Source: an uncultured virus (IMG/VR IMGVR_UViG_3300031963_000055) (taxonomy: Duplodnaviria; Heunggongvirae; Uroviricota; Caudoviricetes). From it: a stretch of DNA of 26,719 nucleotides. The notes under the pieces are model-generated. The model was not told the DNA's origin, did not search any database, and worked only from the letters and a program-made list of their open reading frames with translations. Positions 11,155 to 23,142 of the stretch are shown one piece after another. Positions within the stretch are counted from its first letter, which is position 1. Each line of letters opens with the position of its first letter. The DNA lies in IMG/VR virus record IMGVR_UViG_3300031963_000055, one strand, 5' to 3'. The translations under genes and the position numbers were made by a program.

Positions 11155-13733
11155 TATTTTTTAGGTTTATTAGATTTAGCTTTAGCTGCGGCCAACTTCA
11201 TACGTTCTATCTCCATCTTTTTATTCATCATATCTTTATCTAAAGCAGCTTTCTTATTAGCTAATTCAATTTGATTCTTATTTTGAATTTTAATTTGTTC
11301 AAGTTTCTTATTTTCTAGATCTTGTTTCATTCTAATCTCTTTATCTTTTTGAGCTAACTGAGCATCATGTTTAGATTTATCATGTCCAATCTTAGATTGT
11401 TCTAAGAATGCTTTAGATGATAATTCTTGTTGTTTTAATGCATTAGCCGCAATCTCTGAAGGATCAGGGATACCATTATCATTTTGATCTAAATCTTGTT
11501 GTCTAGCAAATACACCAATCTCAGCAATTTGAATTTTTGTAGAATTATTAGCTTCAGCAATATATCTTTCTTGATCAAGTTTTAAATGATCTAATTCAAC
11601 TTGTTCAGCATGCATTTGTTGTTGAATAGCTTCAACTTTCATTTCATGCTCTTGTTGAGCTTTAGAACTATCAGCTTGACGTTTATAGAACTCCTCTTCT
11701 TTACGTTGTAACAATCTTACAATATCTCTAGGAGAATCATTCATTAATGTTTCAACTATTGAAGATAAATCTATTTTTTCAGACTGTAATGCTACTTGAA
11801 CTAATTGGTCTAACTTAGCTTTTAATTCAAGATCTTTAGTATTGTTAGTTACAAATACATTAAACTCTGAATTCTCAAATTCATTCTCTTCTAGGTTAAG
11901 CATCTCAATACCCATATCATCTAAGACATACTGAGCAACTAATCCTTTCTTATAACATATCTTAGCAACTTCAATCATTGCTGTATAGGCTCTACGTTTA
12001 ACTTCAGCATGAGCTTCGTACAAATATTCAGTAATTAATGATGATTGATTAACAGATCTTTCTACATTACCAACTAGTTCAGAGTTATTAATAGCACCTA
12101 AACGTTGAGGTGTAACACCAGATACAAAGGCTACTTGTTGTTTAATGTAATCCAACATATTGATATATTGTTGAATAGATTGACTAAGACTTAAATCAAT
12201 TGCTTGAAACTGATTAAACTTGTTGGCCAATTGTCCTGTAGCAGCACCTTTCTTACCTTCCTCAAATGAGTTAATGAATGCAATATTCATCTCTTTAAGA
12301 TAGTACATCCACTTATCAATATCGATACCTTGACTTTGAGGTATCTGAGCTAAGTCCATGATGAACTTCTTACCTTGATCTGAAGCAAATGCTATCTCTA
12401 ATCTATAAGATATAATATCATATAAATATTGATAAGGTTTTAATCTGTCAATTAAACTAACTGATTGAGAGTTAGTAGCTTCATATATAAATCCTGTATA
12501 ACCTAATCTGCAGTAGTATGGATTATCCAATCTACGTCTTTGGTTAGGTTTAGGTTTAATGTCTGTAAATATATCTAATCCAATTTTAACACCTTCCCAA
12601 GCTTCATTGATCCAATACCATTCTACTTTAGCATCAGGGAAAGCTTCTTTAAATATTCTAGTATTAAAGAATTCATCTACAATCTCTGTATTAACAGTTC
12701 CTTCTTCATCAGTCCAAGTTAACTCACCAATCTTCTTCATTGATTTCCATTCAACTCTAGTAACTCTAATAGAATAGTTATTACTATTATTTCCATTATA
12801 AGCATTAGTTGGAGTAACTCCTGCAAAAGCATTTTGTCCATTAACTACATCAAACTGAGGTTCAAATCCACCTGCTGTATTAAAAGAACCAAAGGTCCCT
12901 CTAGTATAATTTTCTAATTTCTCTATATCTGCTTTAGATAGAATATCACCATATTCATCTAAAATAGTATTGATGGCCAACATACGTTCTTCAACTACTG
13001 CTATAGCATCATCAATAAAAGTAGTATCTCCATCTAGTATCACAGTTAAGTTAACTGGATTAACTCTACGCATAGCTACTTCATCATTCTCAATACCTAC
13101 CCAATAAATCTCTTCTCCAGCAATTAAAGCATCTTTCCATCCTTGAGAAAATAATAATCTAGTATTACATTTCTTCTTTAAAGACTTAAGAATCTTGTTA
13201 GCTTTAGATTCAATTATATCCGACGGTGTATATTTTTCATGCTTGATAATTTCTTCCGGTGGAGGTGGTGGATTATTAGGATCTGCATTAGGATCAATTT
13301 GATAAGCCAAACCTTGTTGTAAAGCCTGGAAAATCTTTTCCTTAATTGCTGAAGTCTTTCTGTTAATATCATCTGGAGATTCAGATACCACAATATGATT
13401 ATCTGGACGTTTAGTTTCCTCACCAATAAGTAACTTAATTGGTTCAGAGATGATGTCATAATGTTGAAATCTAGCGGGAAATGTATTTGAAGTATTGATA
13501 CCCAATGGATCACATATAGTTTCAATATCCTTATGGTTGACTTTACCATTATATAAATCGTAGTTAATTAACTTTCTAAGTCTATCAGAACGCAGATTAC
13601 TACCATTAGTATATCTGTAATTTGAATAATAATTAATGCAAGACTTACCCCACTCTTTGTCTTTGCTAGACATAGGTAACTTTTGTTGTGGTAAATTCTG
13701 ACCACCTAAATTGGCGTATATATCTTGACTCAT
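11154..13733 (-). CDS. portal protein
   Basis: 859 aa directly after the terminase; crAss-type motifs NYDLYNG, LLIGEE, WINEAWEG, LKPYQYLY, SGVTPQRLG; long C-terminal coiled coil with DQNDNGIPD. Confidence 0.9.
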   Translation of the reverse strand: MSQDIYANLGGQNLPQQKLPMSSKDKEWGKSCINYYSNYRYTNGSNLRSDRLRKLINYDLYNGKVNHKDIETICDPLGINTSNTFPARFQHYDIISEPIKLLIGEETKRPDNHIVVSESPDDINRKTSAIKEKIFQALQQGLAYQIDPNADPNNPPPPPEEIIKHEKYTPSDIIESKANKILKSLKKKCNTRLLFSQGWKDALIAGEEIYWVGIENDEVAMRRVNPVNLTVILDGDTTFIDDAIAVVEERMLAINTILDEYGDILSKADIEKLENYTRGTFGSFNTAGGFEPQFDVVNGQNAFAGVTPTNAYNGNNSNNYSIRVTRVEWKSMKKIGELTWTDEEGTVNTEIVDEFFNTRIFKEAFPDAKVEWYWINEAWEGVKIGLDIFTDIKPKPNQRRRLDNPYYCRLGYTGFIYEATNSQSVSLIDRLKPYQYLYDIISYRLEIAFASDQGKKFIMDLAQIPQSQGIDIDKWMYYLKEMNIAFINSFEEGKKGAATGQLANKFNQFQAIDLSLSQSIQQYINMLDYIKQQVAFVSGVTPQRLGAINNSELVGNVERSVNQSSLITEYLYEAHAEVKRRAYTAMIEVAKICYKKGLVAQYVLDDMGIEMLNLEENEFENSEFNVFVTNNTKDLELKAKLDQLVQVALQSEKIDLSSIVETLMNDSPRDIVRLLQRKEEEFYKRQADSSKAQQEHEMKVEAIQQQMHAEQVELDHLKLDQERYIAEANNSTKIQIAEIGVFARQQDLDQNDNGIPDPSEIAANALKQQELSSKAFLEQSKIGHDKSKHDAQLAQKDKEIRMKQDLENKKLEQIKIQNKNQIELANKKAALDKDMMNKKMEIERMKLAAAKAKSNKPKK

Positions 13734-15823
13734 TGGTTTGTACTTGTGTTAAATTGGGAATTCTTCCTATTAAATATAAGGCCTTTTTTATAAATTCTTT
13801 CTAAGTAATTACTAATAGGGTTAGCATCATTTGATAGCTCTTCTACATGTATTCTATGTAATTCATAGGTTTGTAAAATACATAGCATTAACGCAATAAC
13901 TCTATCTGTATTTATTTCTCTATCATAAGCTATTAACTCTTTTAGCAATGGTATAGATTTAATAGTCTGAAATCTAAGTTGTTTAGTTCCTTCTACCTCA
14001 CCATTAATTTCCTCATATAACCATTTCTTAAGATATAACTCACACTGATCTTTAATACCCGCCGCACCTCCAGATCCTCTATTCATATGGATACCATATC
14101 CACGTTGAACTCTAGAATCCTTAATCATATCCTTAATAATACCAGGTTGTTCACACATATATTGTAGAGAGTTCTTTTGTTCAAAGTATACCTTTAAACC
14201 TTTTAACTGGTTCTCATACAATACTTTAGAGTTATAATACATACATAGTTTTCTACATACTTCATAAAACTCTTCTGCAGTATCTGGTCTAGATGTGTAT
14301 TCAGCAACTATAATATCATGAGTTCTATCCGCTCTATAAAATCTCTTATAGACAAAGAATGAGCCTAGAGATCCAGATTCTGATTTATCTTGATCATAAG
14401 GGTCACATCCTGCAATATATAAGTAATTAGGTATCTCACCATTCTCATGTTTCTCAGGGTGTTCCCAAATCACTGCACAGCCATTTGTAGAGAATGATTC
14501 TCCTGACTTAGGATCTTTTCTTAAAGGGAAGTCTGTAATATGAACTAAGTCATCATTAGGTCTCCATTTAACATATCCATCATCAAAGAATAGTTCACCT
14601 TTCTGAGCTTGACCTCTAAGACTAGGAGTATTCTCTAAATGACCTAACCATTCTAACATCTCTGGAGAACCAAAGACATTACCTTTATTTCTTAAAAAAG
14701 CTTCTTTCCAAGTACAAGGGAATTGAGTAGTAATATTATGAATTGCTTTAGGATCTAAACCATGTTTAGCCTTAGCTCTTAAAAAGTCAATATCATCTTG
14801 AGCTGCTTCATAGTTAGAGTTACCATCTTCATCAACCATAGGTTTTTTATACCATTTAGATTCTGGATTAAGACATAAGCCTAATCTGCCTTTTGTAGCT
14901 GAACTAAAGAACCCTATCCTGCCATTAGGATTAAATGGATCCTCAAAATCTAACATGTTGTATTTTTCAGGATTAGTAAACATCTCATAGAAATACTTAC
15001 TCCCTGAATCCATGTCTCCAGAAGATCCAAATAACAGAGCTACACCTGTGTATGTACTACCGTCTTTTATAAGGGGTTCAGAGTAACCATATGCATCTAC
15101 AATGTTTCCAAAAACACCGCATTCGTCGAGGATTAACCAGTTAGCACTAAGCCCAACACCACTAGTAGGATTATCTTTGTAGCTAATGGCACGCACTTCG
15201 GAATTAAACCCCTTCCACACCTTAACCCCGCTAACAGTTGCCTGATACCTTGCCTTAATAAAGTCTTTAAGGTCAGGATTTCTTTGCTTTCTGAATTCAG
15301 TATTCATATTGATAAAATTTGAATTATCAATAACCATATTCATAGTGTTTTGACTAAAGGTGCTGTAAAAAGCACCTATAATTGCTTTACTATCTGGATA
15401 GAAATAGAATTCATGTGTACATATTGCTGCAGCTTTGTAAGACCAACCTTGACGACGACCTTTTACAGCAACTAGTGATTTTTGATTTAGTCTACAATAT
15501 TCTACCATGTGGAAGAATTCATAATCTAAATCTATAAATCTAGGAAAGATTTTAGATTTCTTTCCAGTCTTTTCATTAAGACCTAATATTGGACAGAAGT
15601 TTAAATAGAAAAAATGTTGACCAGTAATATGTTGCCCACAAGAGTTAGTAAATCCATTTAAACATTTATCTCTAACATCTTGCCAGAACTCTACATATTC
15701 TATAGTTCCTGGAATAGAGTTAGTATATAATCCTGTTCTATTATATTGTTCAGCAAGATATGAAAACTCTTTAGTATTCTTAAAGTAGTCTACACATATT
15801 ACGTATTTATTGTCATTCAGCAT
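13730..15823 (-). CDS. terL: terminase large subunit
   Basis: Walker A-like KGRRQGWS, Walker B LILDE, nuclease motifs IAGCDPY, LYEN, TDRV; ATGA overlap with the portal gene. Confidence 0.93.
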   Translation of the reverse strand: MLNDNKYVICVDYFKNTKEFSYLAEQYNRTGLYTNSIPGTIEYVEFWQDVRDKCLNGFTNSCGQHITGQHFFYLNFCPILGLNEKTGKKSKIFPRFIDLDYEFFHMVEYCRLNQKSLVAVKGRRQGWSYKAAAICTHEFYFYPDSKAIIGAFYSTFSQNTMNMVIDNSNFINMNTEFRKQRNPDLKDFIKARYQATVSGVKVWKGFNSEVRAISYKDNPTSGVGLSANWLILDECGVFGNIVDAYGYSEPLIKDGSTYTGVALLFGSSGDMDSGSKYFYEMFTNPEKYNMLDFEDPFNPNGRIGFFSSATKGRLGLCLNPESKWYKKPMVDEDGNSNYEAAQDDIDFLRAKAKHGLDPKAIHNITTQFPCTWKEAFLRNKGNVFGSPEMLEWLGHLENTPSLRGQAQKGELFFDDGYVKWRPNDDLVHITDFPLRKDPKSGESFSTNGCAVIWEHPEKHENGEIPNYLYIAGCDPYDQDKSESGSLGSFFVYKRFYRADRTHDIIVAEYTSRPDTAEEFYEVCRKLCMYYNSKVLYENQLKGLKVYFEQKNSLQYMCEQPGIIKDMIKDSRVQRGYGIHMNRGSGGAAGIKDQCELYLKKWLYEEINGEVEGTKQLRFQTIKSIPLLKELIAYDREINTDRVIALMLCILQTYELHRIHVEELSNDANPISNYLERIYKKGLIFNRKNSQFNTSTNQ

Positions 15824-15824
15824 A

Positions 15825-16133
15825 TTAAAACATTATATGTAATTCATAACCATCTACAGCAGATGCTGAACATCCATTTTTATTTTTAAAAGGACTACAT
15901 ACACCTTCAAGATATGATAATACTTTTATGTCTTCAGGTTTTAAGTTATATTGTTCTAATGTTTTTAATTCATTATCTAATATCCAACTTTGATTTCCTT
16001 TAAAATTAATTTCTATTGGTGTATTATTACAACCAATAACTAACATGTATCTTTTTATATTTTTTAAATCTAATCCTTTTTTAGATTCATTTAATAAAAA
16101 AGTTGAATAATGATTTTCTTTTGTAAATTCCAT
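15825..16133 (-). CDS. small protein with MCP-like N- and C-terminal segments
   Basis: FTKENHYSTFLLNE resembles MCP 17-30; YLEGVCSPFKNKNGCSASAVDGY resembles MCP 431-454. Confidence 0.75.
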   Translation of the reverse strand: MEFTKENHYSTFLLNESKKGLDLKNIKRYMLVIGCNNTPIEINFKGNQSWILDNELKTLEQYNLKPEDIKVLSYLEGVCSPFKNKNGCSASAVDGYELHIMF

Positions 16134-16135
16134 AA

Positions 16136-16657
16136 TTATTTATCTTCAAACATTCCAAGCTGAGCATCTCCTCTAACTTTATTACCAGATGATTGTTCTT
16201 TATTACAATTATCTAAAGCTGATTGAACAGCTTCTTGCATCTTAGGCATATCTATAATTGCCTTTTGAATTTTAGTAATACTATCCTCATTGTATTCTGC
16301 AGTCTTAAAGAACTCCTCCATTTTACCAATAGATTCTTGAACAGCTTTAAACAATCTCATTGCAGGAGTAGTATGTATTTTATCGTACATATTAATACAA
16401 GCTAAAAGTTCTTCCGTCATTTTAAACTTAGGTTCTTTTAAAATATGATCTACAATTAATTTATGCTTATCTACATTACTATGTTGGAAGAATGGTGATT
16501 TAAATGAAGCATAATACCAAGTGTATTTAATTATGTTAAATGCATGAGTTTTATCTTTAGATTTATCTTTCTCCCACACAGATTTGAATGGTTCTATAAC
16601 CAAACATTCTGGAGCTACAATAATCTTACTATCTTTTAAATCTATTATTTTAATCAT
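16136..16657 (-). CDS. helical protein upstream of terL; candidate small terminase subunit
   Basis: 173 aa, helical, near terL; function inferred from position only. Confidence 0.45.
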   Translation of the reverse strand: MIKIIDLKDSKIIVAPECLVIEPFKSVWEKDKSKDKTHAFNIIKYTWYYASFKSPFFQHSNVDKHKLIVDHILKEPKFKMTEELLACINMYDKIHTTPAMRLFKAVQESIGKMEEFFKTAEYNEDSITKIQKAIIDMPKMQEAVQSALDNCNKEQSSGNKVRGDAQLGMFEDK

Positions 16658-17061
16658 TAATTTTTTAATCTTTTAAATTTAGTATAAGCTTTTTCAAAAA
16701 ATTCAATTGTTTCACTTAATAAATACCCTTGTAGATAAGCATAAGTTTCATTGGCATCTTTTTTCTTAAATATTATATTTTTATGTTCTAAAATATCTTG
16801 AGTTAAATGTAATAATTCATGACCTATTGTATCAAAGTAATATTTTTTATTTACATCATATTTAACAATTAATACATGTAATCTAGTCTCATATTTAGAA
16901 GTAAATTTATTAAAAACACACCCTCTACATTCAATAAATTCTTCATCAATGTCATATTGTGTTTTTAAATCTTTTTTAACATTGTTAAAATTATCTATGA
17001 CATAGACACTAACAAGACAACCATATATAGGTATTATTAATTCTTTATGCATATGTATCAA
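16657..17061 (-). CDS. zincin-like metallopeptidase
   Basis: HEXXH motif (GHELLH) and downstream NETYAY third-ligand motif. Confidence 0.7.
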   Translation of the reverse strand: MIHMHKELIIPIYGCLVSVYVIDNFNNVKKDLKTQYDIDEEFIECRGCVFNKFTSKYETRLHVLIVKYDVNKKYYFDTIGHELLHLTQDILEHKNIIFKKKDANETYAYLQGYLLSETIEFFEKAYTKFKRLKN

Positions 17062-17335
17062 ACTCTACAATAATAGGATTATTTGTTTTTATAGGACATC
17101 CATCAATACATGTTGTCTCATCTTTAAGATTTAAAGATTCTAATAATACTTTTATATCACGATATTTAAAATAGATATTTCTTATCATATTTTCTCTAAA
17201 ATTAAATTTTGCAGATTCCATTGAATAATGCCCCCAATAAAAGCTTAATGTGTTTGTTTTACGATCAACATAACCTGTTAAAAAGGTTTTATCTTTATAT
17301 ATTGCATAATATATTACTAATATCCAGTATCTCAT
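17045..17335 (-). CDS. hypothetical protein, weak similarity to MCP N-terminal region
   Basis: 96 aa, overlaps its neighbours; YKDKTFLTG vs MCP YKNALSFLTG. Confidence 0.5.
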   Translation of the reverse strand: MRYWILVIYYAIYKDKTFLTGYVDRKTNTLSFYWGHYSMESAKFNFRENMIRNIYFKYRDIKVLLESLNLKDETTCIDGCPIKTNNPIIVEFDTYA

Positions 17336-17601
17336 TGTCCTAATCCTTTAATAGTAATTGGTGTAAAGTAATTATCTCTTAACTTCTTATAAGGCATATT
17401 AATCTTATAGTATTCAGTATCATATTTACAAGTAGTAAACTTAGGTACAACCTTACCAGAAGGATTCATATGTTCTTCTATCTGCATACCCTCAGTAATG
17501 AATAGCTTCTTTTGAAATATTCTTTCTGGGACATATCTTGCAATAGATCTACCTCTTTCCTTTATAGGTAATTGAGATATGACTTCTAGTTCTATTATCA
17601 T
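17332..17601 (-). CDS. hypothetical protein
   Basis: 89 aa, ATGA overlap with the downstream gene. Confidence 0.6.
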   Translation of the reverse strand: MIIELEVISQLPIKERGRSIARYVPERIFQKKLFITEGMQIEEHMNPSGKVVPKFTTCKYDTEYYKINMPYKKLRDNYFTPITIKGLGQ

Positions 17602-17602
17602 A

Positions 17603-17830
17603 TTATTTTAAGTCTTTACTGAATAACCATGTTGAATAAGAATAAAATGAATCATTATCTTTTAATTTGATTATAATAAACATTTTAAGTTTCATTTTAC
17701 GTAATTTGGGTTTAACTAAAGATATTACTTTATTTGCTAATTCTGTATCTATTTCTTTAAATAATTTAAAAGAATGGTTTTGAGGTACATTTAAAGTATC
17801 TGTAGTATAAACTTTTAATTTATTTACCAT
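17603..17830 (-). CDS. hypothetical protein, weak similarity to portal 170-200
   Basis: Start probably ATG at 17830 (short overlap with the upstream stop); 17845 is also possible. Confidence 0.5.
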   Translation of the reverse strand: MVNKLKVYTTDTLNVPQNHSFKLFKEIDTELANKVISLVKPKLRKMKLKMFIIIKLKDNDSFYSYSTWLFSKDLK

Positions 17831-18024
17831 TTGTTCATTGGACATTTAGAATATTCTGACCTTGTTTTAGCAATTAAAGGACACCCACATTGTGAGCAAG
17901 TATTGTTAATATTGTAAAAACAATTTGAACAAACTACTGCTCTGTCCATAGCTATCTTTTCTACTTTAGGATTTTCCCAAATTACATTGGACCATCCTGA
18001 AATAATTTCCATTAATTTACTCAT
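17824..18024 (-). CDS. small Cys-rich (zinc-binding) protein
   Basis: R..C..C.......C..CGC....K......CP..KW pattern. Confidence 0.7.
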   Translation of the reverse strand: MSKLMEIISGWSNVIWENPKVEKIAMDRAVVCSNCFYNINNTCSQCGCPLIAKTRSEYSKCPMNKW

Positions 18025-18250
18025 CTGTCTTAAGTTTTAATCGTTTAATATAATCTTGATTGTAAGCAGTAGGTCTAAACTTACCTAAGTAAATTAACTG
18101 AACTACTTTACCCTCTCTATTACTCATAGTATTTCTAATTACTCTGAACTGTGAGTCACATATTCTTTCAAGTTCCATTTTAGATAATGTAAAGTCACCC
18201 TTAATTTCATCCAATATTTCTTCATAGATATTACTTTTTGTTGAGTTCAT
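18017..18250 (-). CDS. HU/IHF-like DNA-binding protein
   Basis: Two helices then KVVQLIYLGKF, resembling the HU/IHF V.L.GFG.F strand; such genes are typical of crAss-like phages. Confidence 0.6.
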   Translation of the reverse strand: MNSTKSNIYEEILDEIKGDFTLSKMELERICDSQFRVIRNTMSNREGKVVQLIYLGKFRPTAYNQDYIKRLKLKTDE

Positions 18251-18408
18251 ATTTTACCTTCTCTATCACTAGTTATATTAAAATGTTTGTCAAATTCTTC
18301 AATTTTCATATCCATAATAATACCATTTAAACCCATATTTATAAGTTTATTTCTATATGAAAATACTTGAGATTGTAATAATAAATAATCTTTTAATAAC
18401 TCTTCCAT
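18247..18408 (-). CDS. 53-aa ORF not in the supplied track
   Basis: MEELLKDYLLLQSQVFSYRNKLINMGLNGIIMDMKIEEFDKHFNITSDREGKI; TAATG overlap upstream and ATGA overlap downstream fill the gap exactly. Confidence 0.7.
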   Translation of the reverse strand: MEELLKDYLLLQSQVFSYRNKLINMGLNGIIMDMKIEEFDKHFNITSDREGKI

Positions 18409-18728
18409 TATACAAAACTTAAATTAACTGAATCATGTTTTAAAATATGTAGAATATTAGGATTAACTTTAAGGGTTAGTCTATCTACTTGTTGTAATAC
18501 TTTCTTAGTAACTAGTTTTTTAATATAGTTATTAAAATTAAACTTATCCATATCTAAGAACATACGAACATCTGTTCTAGTATTCTTATCAATAATAGTT
18601 ATCTGCTTATCAGCAATAACAACTAAGATCTCAATCTCTTTATCTGTTAAGTTACCCATAATAGGATTCAACATCTGAATAAGATATTTAGTTTTTTGAG
18701 CTATGGGAAGTTTAAGTTTGAATTCCAT
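18408..18728 (-). CDS. winged-helix DNA-binding protein
   Basis: LTDKEIEIL...DVRMFLDMDKFNFNNYIKKLVTKKVL, MarR-like HTH pattern. Confidence 0.6.
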   Translation of the reverse strand: MEFKLKLPIAQKTKYLIQMLNPIMGNLTDKEIEILVVIADKQITIIDKNTRTDVRMFLDMDKFNFNNYIKKLVTKKVLQQVDRLTLKVNPNILHILKHDSVNLSFV

Positions 18729-18811
18729 TATTTATCATCTTCAAAATAAGCAGAAATTAATACACTTAATCCTATTACTATAAGTACTAAATTTAAATCG
18801 TTTAATTCCAT
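18728..18811 (-). CDS. 27-aa single-TM peptide not in the supplied track
   Basis: MELNDLNLVLIVIGLSVLISAYFEDDK; TAATG coupling to the next gene; ATG at the predicted transcription start. Confidence 0.6.
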   Translation of the reverse strand: MELNDLNLVLIVIGLSVLISAYFEDDK

Positions 18812-18815
18812 ACAT

Positions 18816-18847
18816 CAAATATAACTGATTTAATTATAATAACCAAA
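18816..18847 (-). promoter_or_regulatory. Bacteroidota primary-sigma promoter (-33/-7)
   Basis: TTTG(18847-18844)-N20-TATATTTG(18823-18816), an exact match to TTTG-N19-21-TAnnTTTG. Confidence 0.75.
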
Positions 18848-18868
18848 TAAATTATATAACTAAGTTAA

Positions 18869-19192
18869 TTATCTAGTTATTCCATATTGTATCAATTTAT
18901 GGGAATCTGGATGCATTGTTAAATATCTAACTACTTCCTCATAAAATACAGATTGAAATACTTCTAAATGGTCTACTGTTAGATCATAATTCTTTCTTAA
19001 AACAACTTTATTAAATCCTATATCAATTTTAGTTGGTTTATACCATAAAGTAAAACATACCCCTTTACCTTCATTTGTTGTCCATTCATCTATTTCAAAT
19101 CTACCATATCCAGGTTTAGATCTTACTTTGCTATCAGCATCTTTGTTTACTATATCTAATAGTTGTTGTATAAACTCTTTACTTATTTCCAT
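18869..19192 (-). CDS. small protein resembling part of the terminase nuclease domain
   Basis: Start revised to ATG at 19192 (leader AAAATAAAAATT); aligns by eye to TerL about 465-532. Confidence 0.6.
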   Translation of the reverse strand: MEISKEFIQQLLDIVNKDADSKVRSKPGYGRFEIDEWTTNEGKGVCFTLWYKPTKIDIGFNKVVLRKNYDLTVDHLEVFQSVFYEEVVRYLTMHPDSHKLIQYGITR

Positions 19193-19516
19193 AATTTTTA
19201 TTTTGAATTGAACACAATATTCCCCTTCCAGTTTGTACACCAGATGTTAGGATTAATTATAAACTTATATCTATCTGTCTTTAACCGTTCCAGTTACCTG
19301 GCCACTGCTTACTTTAACCCTGTTAATTCAGGAGGATACTTCATACCTCTTGTAGCAGTTATAGAATTTCATTTATAACCTTTTTTTGTACCTATCGGAG
19401 AAACCTCAACCCTTATGTTTAGATGTTATTTCAATCTCAGAGTTTACTATCCAACTTCTAAGCAAGTGTTAACTTTTTGGGTATTCCTTGCTGAATTACT
19501 TCTTCAGTAATAGTAC
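19193..19516 (-). ncRNA. candidate structured ncRNA or long structured 5' leader
   Basis: About 320 nt with no convincing ORF, starting at a predicted promoter; several stems and a GTAA-tetraloop hairpin; family not recognised. Confidence 0.5.
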
Positions 19517-19520
19517 AGTA

Positions 19521-19552
19521 TAAATATAAGCTTTTTCTAGGACACTATCAAA
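19521..19552 (-). promoter_or_regulatory. Bacteroidota-type promoter
   Basis: TTTG(19552-19549)-N20-TATATTTA(19528-19521). Confidence 0.65.
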
Positions 19553-19733
19553 TTTCAGGTGTTAAATCTTTAGAAATATCTTTAATTTCTAAATCGGATT
19601 CTGGAGTAATTATGGGTGCTTGCCCTTCTAATGAAGAATCCCACCAAACTATCCCTTTTTCTTTTACCCAATATAGAAATTCTGTAATTTCCATTTGATT
19701 AGGTTTTGATTTTAAATCATATACTAGTTTCAT
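19548..19733 (-). CDS. small protein resembling portal 456-493
   Basis: KLVYDLKSKP...EITEFLYWVKEKGIVWWDSSLEG vs portal KFIMDLAQIP...DIDKWMYYLKEMNIAFINSFEEG. Confidence 0.7.
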   Translation of the reverse strand: MKLVYDLKSKPNQMEITEFLYWVKEKGIVWWDSSLEGQAPIITPESDLEIKDISKDLTPEI

Positions 19734-19734
19734 A

Positions 19735-19947
19735 TTATTCTTCAGTTATAGGACTAGTCCCAGTTAATAAATAAAACTTATTGATTTTCTCAGCCATGAT
19801 TAACTTCTCATTGATATGATCCATATCCTCATAATCTAGTTTATCGTTATAGTGTTTCTTAGTTACACCCATTTTAAGGTAAATTGATCCATCAGGTAAT
19901 ATACCTATGATTTGATGATCGTTGAAATTTTTAGATTTTGTTCTCAT
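19735..19947 (-). CDS. small protein with a segment resembling portal 61-77
   Basis: YNDKLDYEDMDHINEKL vs portal YNGKVNHKDIETICDPL. Confidence 0.55.
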   Translation of the reverse strand: MRTKSKNFNDHQIIGILPDGSIYLKMGVTKKHYNDKLDYEDMDHINEKLIMAEKINKFYLLTGTSPITEE

Positions 19948-20417
19948 TATTTAATATTTAATTGTTGCATTAGTTTAATTAATTCTGATTTGTTTTTAAT
20001 TTTAAATCTCATAACCCATTCTCCAGGTACATAAGATGAATATGCTTGTATTTTAATAACCCAATTATCATCTTGTTGAATTAACCAATAATGAATACCA
20101 TTGTTAAATCCAAACTCTTCTGTTTTTTGAAAAGTCATTAATTGTCTTCCTGTAAATGGTGATTTTTTAGAATCTCTTAATTCCCAACCTAAACTTTCTA
20201 TATCAGATTGGTCTAGGTATTTAACTCTAACTGTTCTAATTCCTCCTAATAATTCTTCTTCAAACCAACTATCTGATCTTTCATAATCTGGTCCATCAGA
20301 TTTATAATCTTGTATTCTCATTTTAGATTCTTCCCACCTATCTCCATTCATATATTCATATCCAAATCCTACATGAAACTCTTCTATTGTAGGTGTATAG
20401 TATAAGTTATTTTCCAT
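19947..20417 (-). CDS. hypothetical phage protein
   Basis: 156 aa; YYTPTIEEFHVGF.YE and RVKYLD..DIESLG motifs; function unknown. Confidence 0.65.
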   Translation of the reverse strand: MENNLYYTPTIEEFHVGFGYEYMNGDRWEESKMRIQDYKSDGPDYERSDSWFEEELLGGIRTVRVKYLDQSDIESLGWELRDSKKSPFTGRQLMTFQKTEEFGFNNGIHYWLIQQDDNWVIKIQAYSSYVPGEWVMRFKIKNKSELIKLMQQLNIK

Positions 20418-20586
20418 TTGTATAATCTTTAGGTAATGTTGATTTATTAGATTGTTTAATTATTGTTTGGTGTAAAGCTTCTTCTAGTCTATAGGTTATA
20501 ATATCATACAGATGTTTATGTTTAATCCTAATATCTACAGGTTCATCTACCCAAAACTGTTGTTGTTTATATTCATTGTTACTCAT
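20407..20586 (-). CDS. 59-aa ORF not in the supplied track, containing a portal-like peptide
   Basis: MSNNEYKQQQFWVDEPVDIRIKHKHLYDIITYRLEEALHQTIIKQSNKSTLPKDYTNGK; ATGA overlap with the upstream ORF. Confidence 0.75.
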   Translation of the reverse strand: MSNNEYKQQQFWVDEPVDIRIKHKHLYDIITYRLEEALHQTIIKQSNKSTLPKDYTNGK

Positions 20587-20765
20587 TGTTGCTCATTGTT
20601 AAATAATTGTTCTACTTTAATTCTTATTTCTACTTTACCACTAGCACCATTCTTAAATTCTTTCCACTCTTCAATAGGTAAAAATTTAGATTTACTTCCT
20701 AAGTAAATAGTTACATTTCCTAATGGGTGATTATATACAAACATTATTGGGTCTTGTTCTACCAT
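20583..20765 (-). CDS. small protein, weak similarity to portal 214-240
   Basis: 60 aa, overlapping both neighbours. Confidence 0.55.
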   Translation of the reverse strand: MVEQDPIMFVYNHPLGNVTIYLGSKSKFLPIEEWKEFKNGASGKVEIRIKVEQLFNNEQQ

Positions 20766-20974
20766 GAGAATTGTTCTTTAGGTCCATTAATAAAGTATTC
20801 TTCTAATATCTTGTTTCTAGCTATAATGTAATCAGCACCAGTTCCTTCTACTCTAGTAGCAGGTTTAATAATATTAGTATATTCTACAGTAGTAACTGTA
20901 TGTCTTATGACTTCTCCTAACATAATAGTAGTATGTTCTAAGTCTGGAGTACGGTGTAATATCTTAATTTCCAT
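20759..20974 (-). CDS. small protein with segments resembling portal 324-380
   Basis: 71 aa, ATG 4 nt after a promoter -7 element; VTTVEY, EGT and EEYFIN match the portal in order. Confidence 0.6.
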   Translation of the reverse strand: MEIKILHRTPDLEHTTIMLGEVIRHTVTTVEYTNIIKPATRVEGTGADYIIARNKILEEYFINGPKEQFSW

Positions 20975-20978
20975 GATC

Positions 20979-21010
20979 TAAAGGTAACTAATAATTAACT
21001 AATTACCAAA
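20979..21010 (-). promoter_or_regulatory. Bacteroidota-type promoter
   Basis: TTTG(21010-21007)-N20-TACCTTTA(20986-20979)-N4-ATG. Confidence 0.65.
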
Positions 21011-21159
21011 TACTCGTCCCAATTATCTTATATTTTGGGGACATAGAATATAGCTTTAATAGGTTTCATTTTATGAAAAATTCATGCAAAGTTGTAACAA
21101 AAGTAGTAAGTATTTGTTACACGGGAATGTGTATTATAGTGCATAAATGGGTATGAGAT

Positions 21160-21714
21160 TTAAGATTTATCAGTGTTAGATAGTTTAAGGTATTCTACGG
21201 CTTTTAATAATAAAATTGAATTATCCTTAAACATACCCAATCCTGAATTACAATTAGAGCATAATAAACCCCTTACTAATCCTGTATCATGACAGTGATC
21301 TATTGATAATTTTCTATGGTAAGTATTACAAATCAAGCAGTTACCTTGTTGAGTACTATACAATTTATCATAATCTTCTATCGTCATATCATAGTTAGAT
21401 TTTAATTTTTGTTTTCTCTTTCTTAGAGACTCTTTAATAGGGTTAGCTTTTCTTTTTATTGCTTTGTATTTATTTCTGCATACTTTACAACTAGATTGAG
21501 TACTTCCTGTATTTTTATTGATAATTGAAAAACAAGATATATCTTTAGATTCTGTACATGTGGTGCATATTTTTAAACCCTCTACAATAGGTTTATGTGG
21601 TTTATGACCATATCTACATTCTTTACAAAACCCTAAATACCCGTCTTTGTTTACTGAACACTGATTAAAATCAGTAAGTTCTTTTTCTACTTTACATTTT
21701 TTACATATTTTCAT
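21160..21714 (-). CDS. endonuclease VII-family (His-Me finger) endonuclease, probably a free-standing homing endonuclease
   Basis: CLIC...IDHCHDTGLVRGLLCSNCNSGLGMFKD, preceded by two CxxC...CxxC repeats. Confidence 0.85.
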   Translation of the reverse strand: MKICKKCKVEKELTDFNQCSVNKDGYLGFCKECRYGHKPHKPIVEGLKICTTCTESKDISCFSIINKNTGSTQSSCKVCRNKYKAIKRKANPIKESLRKRKQKLKSNYDMTIEDYDKLYSTQQGNCLICNTYHRKLSIDHCHDTGLVRGLLCSNCNSGLGMFKDNSILLLKAVEYLKLSNTDKS

Positions 21715-21718
21715 AATA

Positions 21719-21751
21719 TAAAGATAAGCATTATTTAGTTATTTTTACAAA
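21719..21751 (-). promoter_or_regulatory. Bacteroidota-type promoter
   Basis: TTTG(21751-21748)-N21-TATCTTTA(21726-21719)-N4-ATG. Confidence 0.6.
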
Positions 21752-21884
21752 TATTAATCACCAAAAATTTTATTTTTTTTCAAAATTTTCAATGTATATA
21801 AGGATTTCCAGCACCCCCAATTTCCATCCCCCACTAAACTTTGAGAGAAAATCATTTCCTTTATAACTTTAAAACTATCACATT

Positions 21885-22121
21885 ATGAAAACTTTATTAG
21901 AGTATTTAAAAGAATTAGGTGCAGTTAAAGCATCTATTATTGCTGGTCCAAATGGTAAATTTATTAGCTATGAATTAGCTAGTGGTGCTAAAGCTACATT
22001 ACCAGTTGGTAAAAGGTCTTATGATGGTACATTATCAACATTTAATGTATTGATTACTGAAGAGGGACAAGCTATTGCTACTGTCAACTCTTATGTAGAA
22101 GAGGAGACTATGTCATTATAG
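21885..22121 (+). CDS. hypothetical protein, first plus-strand gene
   Basis: 78 aa, TAAAACTA leader. Confidence 0.7.
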   Translation: MKTLLEYLKELGAVKASIIAGPNGKFISYELASGAKATLPVGKRSYDGTLSTFNVLITEEGQAIATVNSYVEEETMSL

Positions 22122-22321: not shown

Positions 22322-22632
22322 CAACACTTAAATATATAACTCTCTCCAACTGCTTTGGAGTTAATTGAGATGTTTACATCTTAGTTAAGCTTGTGGAATA
22401 GACCACTGAGGAGAGTTTATATTTAATTTAGAGTAATCTACTAGTTTAGTAGGAATTAATGCTCTGAAAGGCTTGAAAACATTGGGAATTATGGAATAGT
22501 AGATGGAGTACACTCCTCTCCCTCACCTTTTAACCCTAATCCTAACTTATCCTATAATTATATCCTCTTATATACACATAGCTTAATTAACAACTTATAA
22601 ACCAATTATTAACCTCTAAAAACTATCCAACT

Positions 22633-22824
22633 ATGAACACTTTACAACGTACTACTAAAAATGGTAGACCAATTATCAACAGACAAACTAAATTACCTGA
22701 ATATGCATTCAGTGTACATAACAGATTAAATACTGTTAAACGTGAATTAGGTTATGTAAACAACAAACCTAGTCATGACCAAATTTGGGCATCAATATGT
22801 GTTGGTGTCTCACTATTAACCTAA
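22633..22824 (+). CDS. hypothetical protein
   Basis: 63 aa, AAAAACTA leader. Confidence 0.6.
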   Translation: MNTLQRTTKNGRPIINRQTKLPEYAFSVHNRLNTVKRELGYVNNKPSHDQIWASICVGVSLLT

Positions 22825-23037
22825 CTAAATATCTATTACATATTCCACTGTAAACCATTATATAACAAGGACTTGTGCAAGTATCAAGTATTATATTAAT
22901 GTTTGTGGGTATGTAATAGATTATCAATATTAAACAGTTAAAGAGTGGCAGATGTAGAAATACATGCAGATTTAGTTTATACTATATGTTTCCGCCTAAC
23001 TGTTTATACCAAATTAATCATTTAAAACTAAATAATT

Positions 23038-23142
23038 ATGAAAACATTTCTATTATTCTGTAAAATGTTACATGTTAAAGAAAATACACATGAATATAAT
23101 TACAGAAAAATTTACCCTAAATTAAATGCTTTAACAAATTAA
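23038..23142 (+). CDS. 34-aa ORF not in the supplied track
   Basis: MKTFLLFCKMLHVKENTHEYNYRKIYPKLNALTN; TAAAACTAAATAATT leader like its neighbours. Confidence 0.45.
   Translation: MKTFLLFCKMLHVKENTHEYNYRKIYPKLNALTN

Follow-up and report, generated by a model that had tools for sequence, protein, structure and literature searches.

A gene of 59 codons in a freshwater crAss-like phage raises the question of why a small accessory protein should nearly repeat a stretch of the portal protein encoded in the same genome. The gene, ORF59 (an open reading frame, ORF, of 59 amino acids, aa), lies in the window, which is the whole stretch of DNA analysed here: 26,719 nucleotides from an uncultured virus of the Caudoviricetes (IMG/VR record IMGVR_UViG_3300031963_000055). 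The window is part of a crAss-like phage genome and holds 44 ORFs with a proteome of 7,834 aa. ORF59 stands in a slot in which related phages carry one constant N-terminal tag followed by unrelated sequences, here called payloads. The account we favour, to which we give a probability of about 0.5, is that the core of ORF59 was copied from a portal helix, that it is a swappable payload of the slot, and that it works as a soluble mimic of a virion-protein surface. The coordinates of the features are collected in Table 1.

The match between ORF59 and the portal protein

The original prediction reported a near-exact portal peptide in ORF59, with 10 of 12 residues and, by hand count, about 33 of 44 bases identical, and a recount gave the same figures. 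ORF59 residues 26–37 (LYDIITYRLEEA, 20476-20511) and portal residues 437–448 (LYDIISYRLEIA, 12390-12425) share 10/12 residues and 27/36 bases. The longer DNA stretches 20477-20520 and 12391-12434 are identical at exactly 33/44 bases, a level that 199,354 random pairs of 44-mers from the window never attained (maximum 27). Only two inter-protein pairs of 12-mers in the window proteome stand at 10/12, a level reached by 0/60 residue shuffles.

The comparison of family profiles with hhalign showed a score of 38.2 between the ORF59 family and the portal family, which none of 150 column shuffles reached (maximum 20.3); the reversed portal scored 12.5. The ORF59–portal pair ranked second among 645 real pairs (15 small proteins against 43 other ORFs), with 32.3 and noise up to 22.5, and second again among 234 family-profile pairs (18 accessory against 13 structural families), with 34.4 and noise of at most 21.6. 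It was also the second-best match (E 0.026) when 16 structural proteins were searched with tblastn against the six frames of 15824-21800. A six-frame search of five near-complete relatives (86–91 kb) with ORF59 returned, per genome, only the syntenic small ORF and the portal (portal E ~0.012).

The full ORF59 family scored 39.2 against portal residues 427–452 and at most 19.5 against the 12 other structural families, with 100 shuffles giving 13.0 ± 2.1 (maximum 20.8). When ORF59 and six close relatives were left out, the remaining 13 distant members (at most 71% identical to ORF59) still scored 37.1 against portal 428–452. Judged by these alignments, the portal likeness is a property of the whole ORF59 family, which shares a segment whose similarity to the portal lies above the controls. 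The match is very probably not accidental, and pure chance is an improbable source of it.

The translation of ORF59 is MSNNEYKQQQFWVDEPVDIRIKHKHLYDIITYRLEEALHQTIIKQSNKSTLPKDYTNGK. The ORF is conserved, as the original prediction required: seven close clusters were found at 74–98% identity, and a family-profile search of 1.84 billion representatives gave 15 proteins at E ≤ 1e-3, 14 of them 49–64 aa long. A 704-aa repeat protein among these matches was set aside as unrelated. All 14 small representatives carry the same tag and the motif K-[YH]-[KQ]-x-[LI]-Y-[DEK]-I-[IVL]. The sequence KYQxLYDII of several distant members also matches portal Y434 and Q435, two residues lost in ORF59. Among 20 aligned sequences, the most distant of which shares 31% identity with ORF59, Y27 and I29 alone are invariant; next come the tag residues S2, E5, Y6 and W12 (each at least 90%). 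In the portal, the residues aligned to Y27 and I29 are Y438 and I440; both are invariant in the portal family, together with L437, I441 and L445. On this alignment, ORF59 probably represents a real gene family with two conserved parts, the tag and the portal-like core.

ORF59 was nearly unchanged across contigs from several freshwater studies, while its neighbouring genes varied. In a variant contig of 25.9 kb (run X16) the neighbours are swapped or skipped, and the only change in ORF59 is 20568 T>C (K7E). The AlphaFold2 (AF2) model of ORF59 showed helices at residues 4–14 and 17–46, with a predicted local distance difference test score (pLDDT) of 75.9 overall and 90–94 over residues 21–40. 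No match to ORF59 was found in the PHROGs or Pfam libraries, tblastn against 50,697 phage records returned only a Microviridae match (E 7), and the best score in an ESM Atlas search was 0.88, under the lead level of 0.9. Public pipelines label the counterparts of ORF59 in relatives as "hypothetical protein". A search for longer, fused forms of ORF59 gave no candidate, which is weak evidence.

The likeness to crassvirus portals (PhicrAss001 gp20, PDB 7QOG; phrog_6547) is local. ORF59 residues 16–41 correspond to portal residues 427–452, with Y27/I29 at the places of Y438/I440, whereas the wing, clip and crown are absent and the N-terminus is an unrelated tag. With 59 aa, no family match and a likeness confined to 16–26 residues, ORF59 is not itself a member of the portal family.

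The original prediction placed the matched segment in the stem helix leading into the clip. Portal residues 437–448 align without gaps with crAss001 gp20 residues 440–451. The published gp20 structure has its inner stem helix at 519–541 and tunnel loops at 550–563, and its clip contacts the tail barrel, as described in the available part of PMC10172136. By the gp20 alignment, the portal segment lies upstream of the inner stem helix region. The AF2 model of the portal was poor (pLDDT 43.9), too poor for a fold search, and its secondary structure alone was used, with caution; it showed helices at 432–450, 514–537 and 553–595, the first of which contains the segment. The segment is very probably the helix that runs into the clip. 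The name of that helix rests on the canonical portal fold, in which we take the helix preceding the clip to be the outer stem helix.

A second argument of the original prediction fell away. It had taken the many synonymous differences between the two DNA stretches as a sign of selection on the peptide. At the 10 shared residues, 6/10 codons are identical against 5.6 ± 1.5 expected, and 25/30 bases against 24.8, when codons are drawn independently from the codon usage of the window. The argument fails because the codon usage of the window predicts the observed DNA identity.

The tag-led slot and other pieces of virion proteins

A total of 62 related viral loci, found by the large terminase (TerL), and 12 metagenome loci, found by the ORF59 family, were compared. 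One ORF starting with M[SA]..EY[EQ]QQQFW was present at the syntenic place in 27/62 viral and 12/12 metagenome loci; the remaining viral loci mostly lack upstream DNA. The tag of the ORF59 family is MSNNEYEQQQFW. The sequences behind the tag are unrelated and 39–88 aa long, and the 30 distinct payloads form 10 families, two of which carry pieces of the major capsid protein (MCP). At the DNA level the tag is a conserved island of 24 bases, with variable DNA on either side, and it occurs once in the window. Searches of PHROGs, Pfam and the ESM Atlas gave no similarity of the tag to anything known.

The ratio of non-synonymous to synonymous substitution rates (dN/dS) was calculated from small samples, pooled pairwise. 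For three DNA sequences of the ORF59 family it was 0.65 overall, 0.29 in the tag and 0.70 in the tail. Between the window and the ORF59 of locus L065, codons 8–41 showed two synonymous and no non-synonymous changes, and codons 42–58 showed eight non-synonymous and no synonymous changes. In the slot alleles named DPW, dN/dS over the N-terminal 31 codons lay at 0.22–0.26 (0.26 in the tag, 0.22 in the next 17 codons), so that the tag ranges from 0.26 to 0.29 across both sets. These values show that the tag is constrained and that the payloads evolve fast.

The stop codon of the slot gene overlaps the following start in 24/26 alleles that have a downstream gene. This overlap accounts for the ...TNGK end of many slot alleles, in which the next gene begins MENNLYY...; where another gene follows, the end differs too. 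A tandem repeat of 10 bases lies at the 5′ edge of the slot, and a different 10-base repeat was found at the same junction in three other loci (L030, L032 and L038). In the window, the repeat marks a slippage or recombination scar.

The closest architectural analogue of the slot is the polymorphic internal protein (IP) locus of phage T4 (IPI-III), in which, as described in the available part of PMC3012670, a short constant N-terminus precedes unrelated, rapidly exchanged remainders. In the phages compared here, one constant N-terminal tag leads 10 payload families at one locus. The analogy is limited in that payloads taken from the phage's own virion proteins are unreported for the IPs in the available part of that paper.

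Some neighbouring genes show related features. The next gene downstream and its homologues have a conserved start (MENNLYYTPTIEEFHVGFEYE) followed by remainders of 59–167 aa, and it may be a second gene with a constant head and a variable body. In the variant contig, 183 bases of this gene (within 20000-20184) are exchanged for 141 others. In three loci (L035:944, L036:3061 and L037:3581) the tag is fused straight onto a protein from the KSKNFND...GILPDGSIYLKMGV family, which in the window lies at 19735-19947; the tag is therefore portable between genes. At its start, the 60-aa ORF upstream of ORF59 (20583-20765, minus strand) resembles an extended tag that lacks the initial 12 residues (EQDPIMFVY against EDKPIEVIL). 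It also has VEIRIK, where ORF59 has VDIRIK; its hhalign score was just 17.4. The ORF may have arisen as a tandem duplicate of a slot allele and then decayed.

Pieces of virion proteins were also found in other small ORFs. The other 12-mer match at 10/12 in the window led to a 102-aa ORF next to TerL. Its tail and the L060 MCP share 60% of 30 aa (pairwise E 8e-11), whereas identity to the phage's own MCP type is only 50%. The ORF matched MCP with E 2.4e-8 in a database of 275 proteins and with a profile score of 64.0 in the 234-pair comparison. It was present only in loci identical to the window. A 58-aa ORF outside the slot (L046:5961-6137) carries a piece of MCP 270–315 (E 4e-8), and one slot allele (L006:4788-5015) carries a piece of MCP 88–120 (E 3e-6). 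The DPW slot alleles (L012:2182, L057:5963, L068:92 and L070:1301) resemble MCP 41–78 with a score of 28.1, against a shuffle maximum of 17.7 (n = 60). When slot alleles stripped of their tags were compared with all large proteins, the L006–MCP pair scored 28.1 bits, ORF59–portal 25.0 bits and DPW–MCP 23–24 bits, with reversed decoys at no more than 21.6.

A second portal-like ORF, of 61 aa, lies close to ORF59 and resembles the portal clip. Its family scored 31.2 against the portal, with 100 shuffles at 14.1 ± 2.8 (maximum 20.9); the pair ranked third of the 234 profile pairs (28.9), and tblastn gave E 0.18. In this family dN/dS was 0.53 for the clip-like part and 1.46 for the remainder. The variant contig bypasses the gene (join 19553->19728). 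On the portal, the clip-like stretch starts three residues past the ORF59-like stretch, which hints at one ancestral portal fragment. That stem helix and clip were one such fragment, later split by inserted genes, is suggestive only.

Other apparent pieces were rejected. The idea that the accessory region is a decayed collinear duplicate of the portal-to-MCP region was suggested by three solid pieces in the right order, but their offsets (8086, 7362 and 7834) disagree. Extension of the pattern needed matches at noise level, and the idea was dropped as unsupported. The sequence IERLKP in the L013 allele scored 17.9 against portal 428–433, within noise. In four complete genomes, small ORFs compared with large proteins (E ≤ 1e-2, SEG on) gave only domain-sized paralogies and recovered none of these short pieces.

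Origin and possible role of the portal-like payload

We propose that the helix core of ORF59, K-Y/H-K/Q-x-L-Y-D-I-I-x-Y-R-L/I-E, is a copy by descent of portal helix 432–450. The hypervariable slot upstream of the terminase gene is prone to recombination: the tag (~12–20 aa) is kept in every allele, the payload is exchanged, and several payloads are short pieces of the portal or MCP of this phage group. The likeness, the gene family, the slot architecture and the parallel capsid pieces are observed, and the mechanism is inferred. Most likely the payload, in soluble form, would imitate a virion-protein surface and compete with the portal helix for its reader or binding partner. Candidates for that target would be a host sensor of short motifs or a protein met in assembly, for instance the adjacent portal subunits. 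The tag would provide a constant function, for example expression, targeting or partner binding. The occurrence of virion-part pieces in a fast-changing slot suggests deliberate mimicry.

A precedent for a trigger mimic that inhibits a sensor is the anti-DSR2 protein DSAD1, which copies the tail tube trigger; it "mimics TTP to trap DSR2" according to the available part of PMC10973363. DSAD1, like ORF59, is a small phage protein proposed to fill the site of a structural protein. The two differ in that, in the part of that report available, the target and structure of DSAD1 are solved, while ORF59 shares actual sequence with the structural protein.

More tentatively, we speculate that the locus serves for display: the tag and short copies of the most conserved portal and capsid surfaces would form a swappable arsenal of virion-epitope mimics, blunting sensors or poisoning the assembly of competing phages. 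The poisoning of related phages is supported by the capsid pieces, in which the likeness to MCPs from other lineages exceeds that to the MCP of the phage itself.

Several observations weigh against the favoured account. The flanks of the matched stretch are unrelated at the DNA level, and blastn gave E 0.41. In an ungapped all-against-all comparison of the 44 ORFs with BLOSUM62, the match scored 53, while the top scores of shuffles averaged 52.5 and 73/100 were at least 50; a generic local-alignment statistic would therefore miss the match. The DNA of ORF59 and the portal holds no copy signal beyond the peptide, so that common descent and convergence are inseparable at this level. The original prediction expected substitutions biased to synonymous sites across relatives, and the portal-like helix showed a dN/dS of 0.84 (from three DNA sequences, of which the distant pair is close to saturation); what backs selection on the core is instead the invariance of Y27 and I29. 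The MCP-like part of the DPW alleles had a dN/dS of 0.92, so at least some payloads look unconstrained. Most relatives are represented by TerL ± 10 kb only, and there is a detection bias in favour of conserved sources, portal and MCP among them. A marine RNA run (X20) contained 4% of the words, as short pieces mostly less than 95% alike, which is no evidence of transcription. That the portal-like part of ORF59 matters is argued solely by the deep conservation of the YDII core.

Such a locus could also hold a neutral relic: a portal fragment dropped by illegitimate recombination, in an ORF kept open only for the passage of ribosomes to the next start. In an AT-rich genome only the original frame of a fragment is free of stops, and relics would therefore appear in frame. 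We consider this rather unlikely, although it accounts for the architecture and the fast evolution. The overlap of stop and next start in nearly all alleles, the tandem-repeat scar at the junction, the 10 unrelated payload families and the dN/dS values of 0.92 (MCP-like part of DPW) and 0.70–0.84 (tail and helix of ORF59) all fit it, as does the endonuclease VII gene close to the slot; nuclease genes are said to mark exchange boundaries in phages. It does not account for the conserved core. LYDII is the best conserved part apart from the tag in a family diverged to 31–48% identity, and neutral filler would lose it. The confidently predicted helix (residues 21–40) and the near constancy of ORF59 over several freshwater studies, despite varying neighbours, also speak against a relic.

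Two amphipathic helices in an AT-rich proteome might share a motif by chance or convergence, without common origin. The BLOSUM62 score within the shuffle range, the dissimilar flanks, the blastn E value and the codon bias that explains the DNA identity are what this reading predicts. It is highly improbable all the same: the shuffle and real-pair controls were beaten, the score of 37.1 was retained without ORF59 and its close relatives, and distant members match additional portal residues. Moreover, the second portal-like ORF abuts the ORF59 segment on the portal, and at least four independent MCP pieces occur in sister ORFs, with E values of 1e-6 to 1e-11.

The original prediction suggested that ORF59 competes with the portal for an Avs4-like sensor. 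The portal is a trigger of Avs sensors (Avs4 and Avs11), as are other structural proteins, according to the available part of bioRxiv 10.64898/2026.01.04.697583; a phage inhibitor that mimics a trigger exists in DSAD1 (PMC10973363, available part), and a hypervariable locus would be expected of an arms race. An Avs4 decoy of this sequence is nevertheless highly improbable. As far as the available part of bioRxiv 10.64898/2026.01.04.697583 goes, Avs sensors read whole folds through extended interfaces. The decoy fits poorly because about 16–26 residues of one helix cannot reproduce an extended interface; ORF59 was modelled as two helices and not as a portal fold. The helix is also buried in the assembled portal stem, which makes it a poor stand-in, and Lit, CapRel and similar sensors of short motifs would be better candidates.

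It is equally doubtful that the tag is a capsid- or cargo-targeting signal by analogy with the T4 capsid-targeting sequence (CTS), with slot proteins packed and injected: crassviruses package cargo proteins (PMC10172136, available part) and the tag is under purifying selection, but no protease site or protease gene was identified, the tag resembles nothing known, and the portal and MCP origin of the payloads would be left unexplained.

Portal and capsid proteins are detected by many bacterial immune sensors and are not free to change. If phages routinely make short soluble copies of these conserved virion surfaces, they would have a general strategy against host defence, or a weapon against other phages, and the copies would be natural peptides that show where portal and capsid are "read" inside the cell. 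Under the neutral reading too, the locus records how remnants of essential genes, placed behind a start module that can be used again, become new phage genes. No description of virion-protein fragments in small phage ORFs was found in the literature searched (supplements excluded). The tag-led slot and the adjoining ORFs with virion pieces extend two known themes, hyperplastic accessory loci and trigger mimicry.

Gene order and occurrence of the window

The DNA of the window is present in freshwater metagenomes of many studies. About 18 small genes lie on the minus strand from 21714 down to 15825, nearly all without family assignment.

Table 1. Features of the slot, its neighbours and the structural genes in the window.
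Feature	Position	Strand	Evidence or remark
ORF59, 59-aa accessory mini-protein: N-terminal tag, long helix, variable tail	20407-20586	-	translation and homologues
Conserved N-terminal tag, codons 1-12 (MSNNEYKQQQFW)	20551-20586	-	common to all slot alleles
Portal-like helix, ORF59 aa 16-41, core aa 26-37 (20476-20511)	20464-20541	-	hhalign to portal 427-452
Portal aa 427-452 (LIDRLKPYQYLYDIISYRLEIAFASD), source-like helix before clip	12378-12455	-	most conserved stretch of the portal family
Tandem repeat of 10 bases, 2.9 copies	20573-20601		covers the start codon of ORF59 together with the end of gene 20583-20765 upstream
Downstream gene, 156 aa (MENNLYYTPTIEEF...)	19947-20417	-	start overlaps the last 11 bases of ORF59
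61-aa ORF	19548-19733	-	aa 2-38 (19620-19730) resemble portal clip aa 456-494
102-aa ORF adjoining TerL upstream	15825-16133	-	tail aa 71-101 (15831-15923) is a piece of MCP 428-461
Portal gene, 859 aa	11154-13733	-	phrog_6547 E 1e-147; crAss001 gp20 (7qog) E 6e-122
Large terminase (TerL)	13730-15823		family match
Major capsid protein (MCP) gene, 483 aa	7919-9370	-	phrog_11589 E 1e-105; crAss001 gp32 (7qof) E 4e-39
Endonuclease VII family gene	21160-21714	-	PF02945 E 3e-23; heads the small-gene block and adjoins the hypervariable region

In one related locus (L053), an HNH-like ORF of 221 aa lies immediately upstream of TerL. A scan for sigma-70 promoters gave 20 sites against 17.9 expected and was uninformative; this promoter type is probably wrong for the likely host. 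A motif of 28 bases (TTTAAAACTATCACATTATGAAAAC...) occurs three times on the plus strand (21868-21895, 22616-22643 and 23021-23048), and its copies span the starts of plus-strand genes beyond the divergent junction at about 21.8 kb. The genes of the opposite transcription unit probably share the motif as their promoter or start signal.

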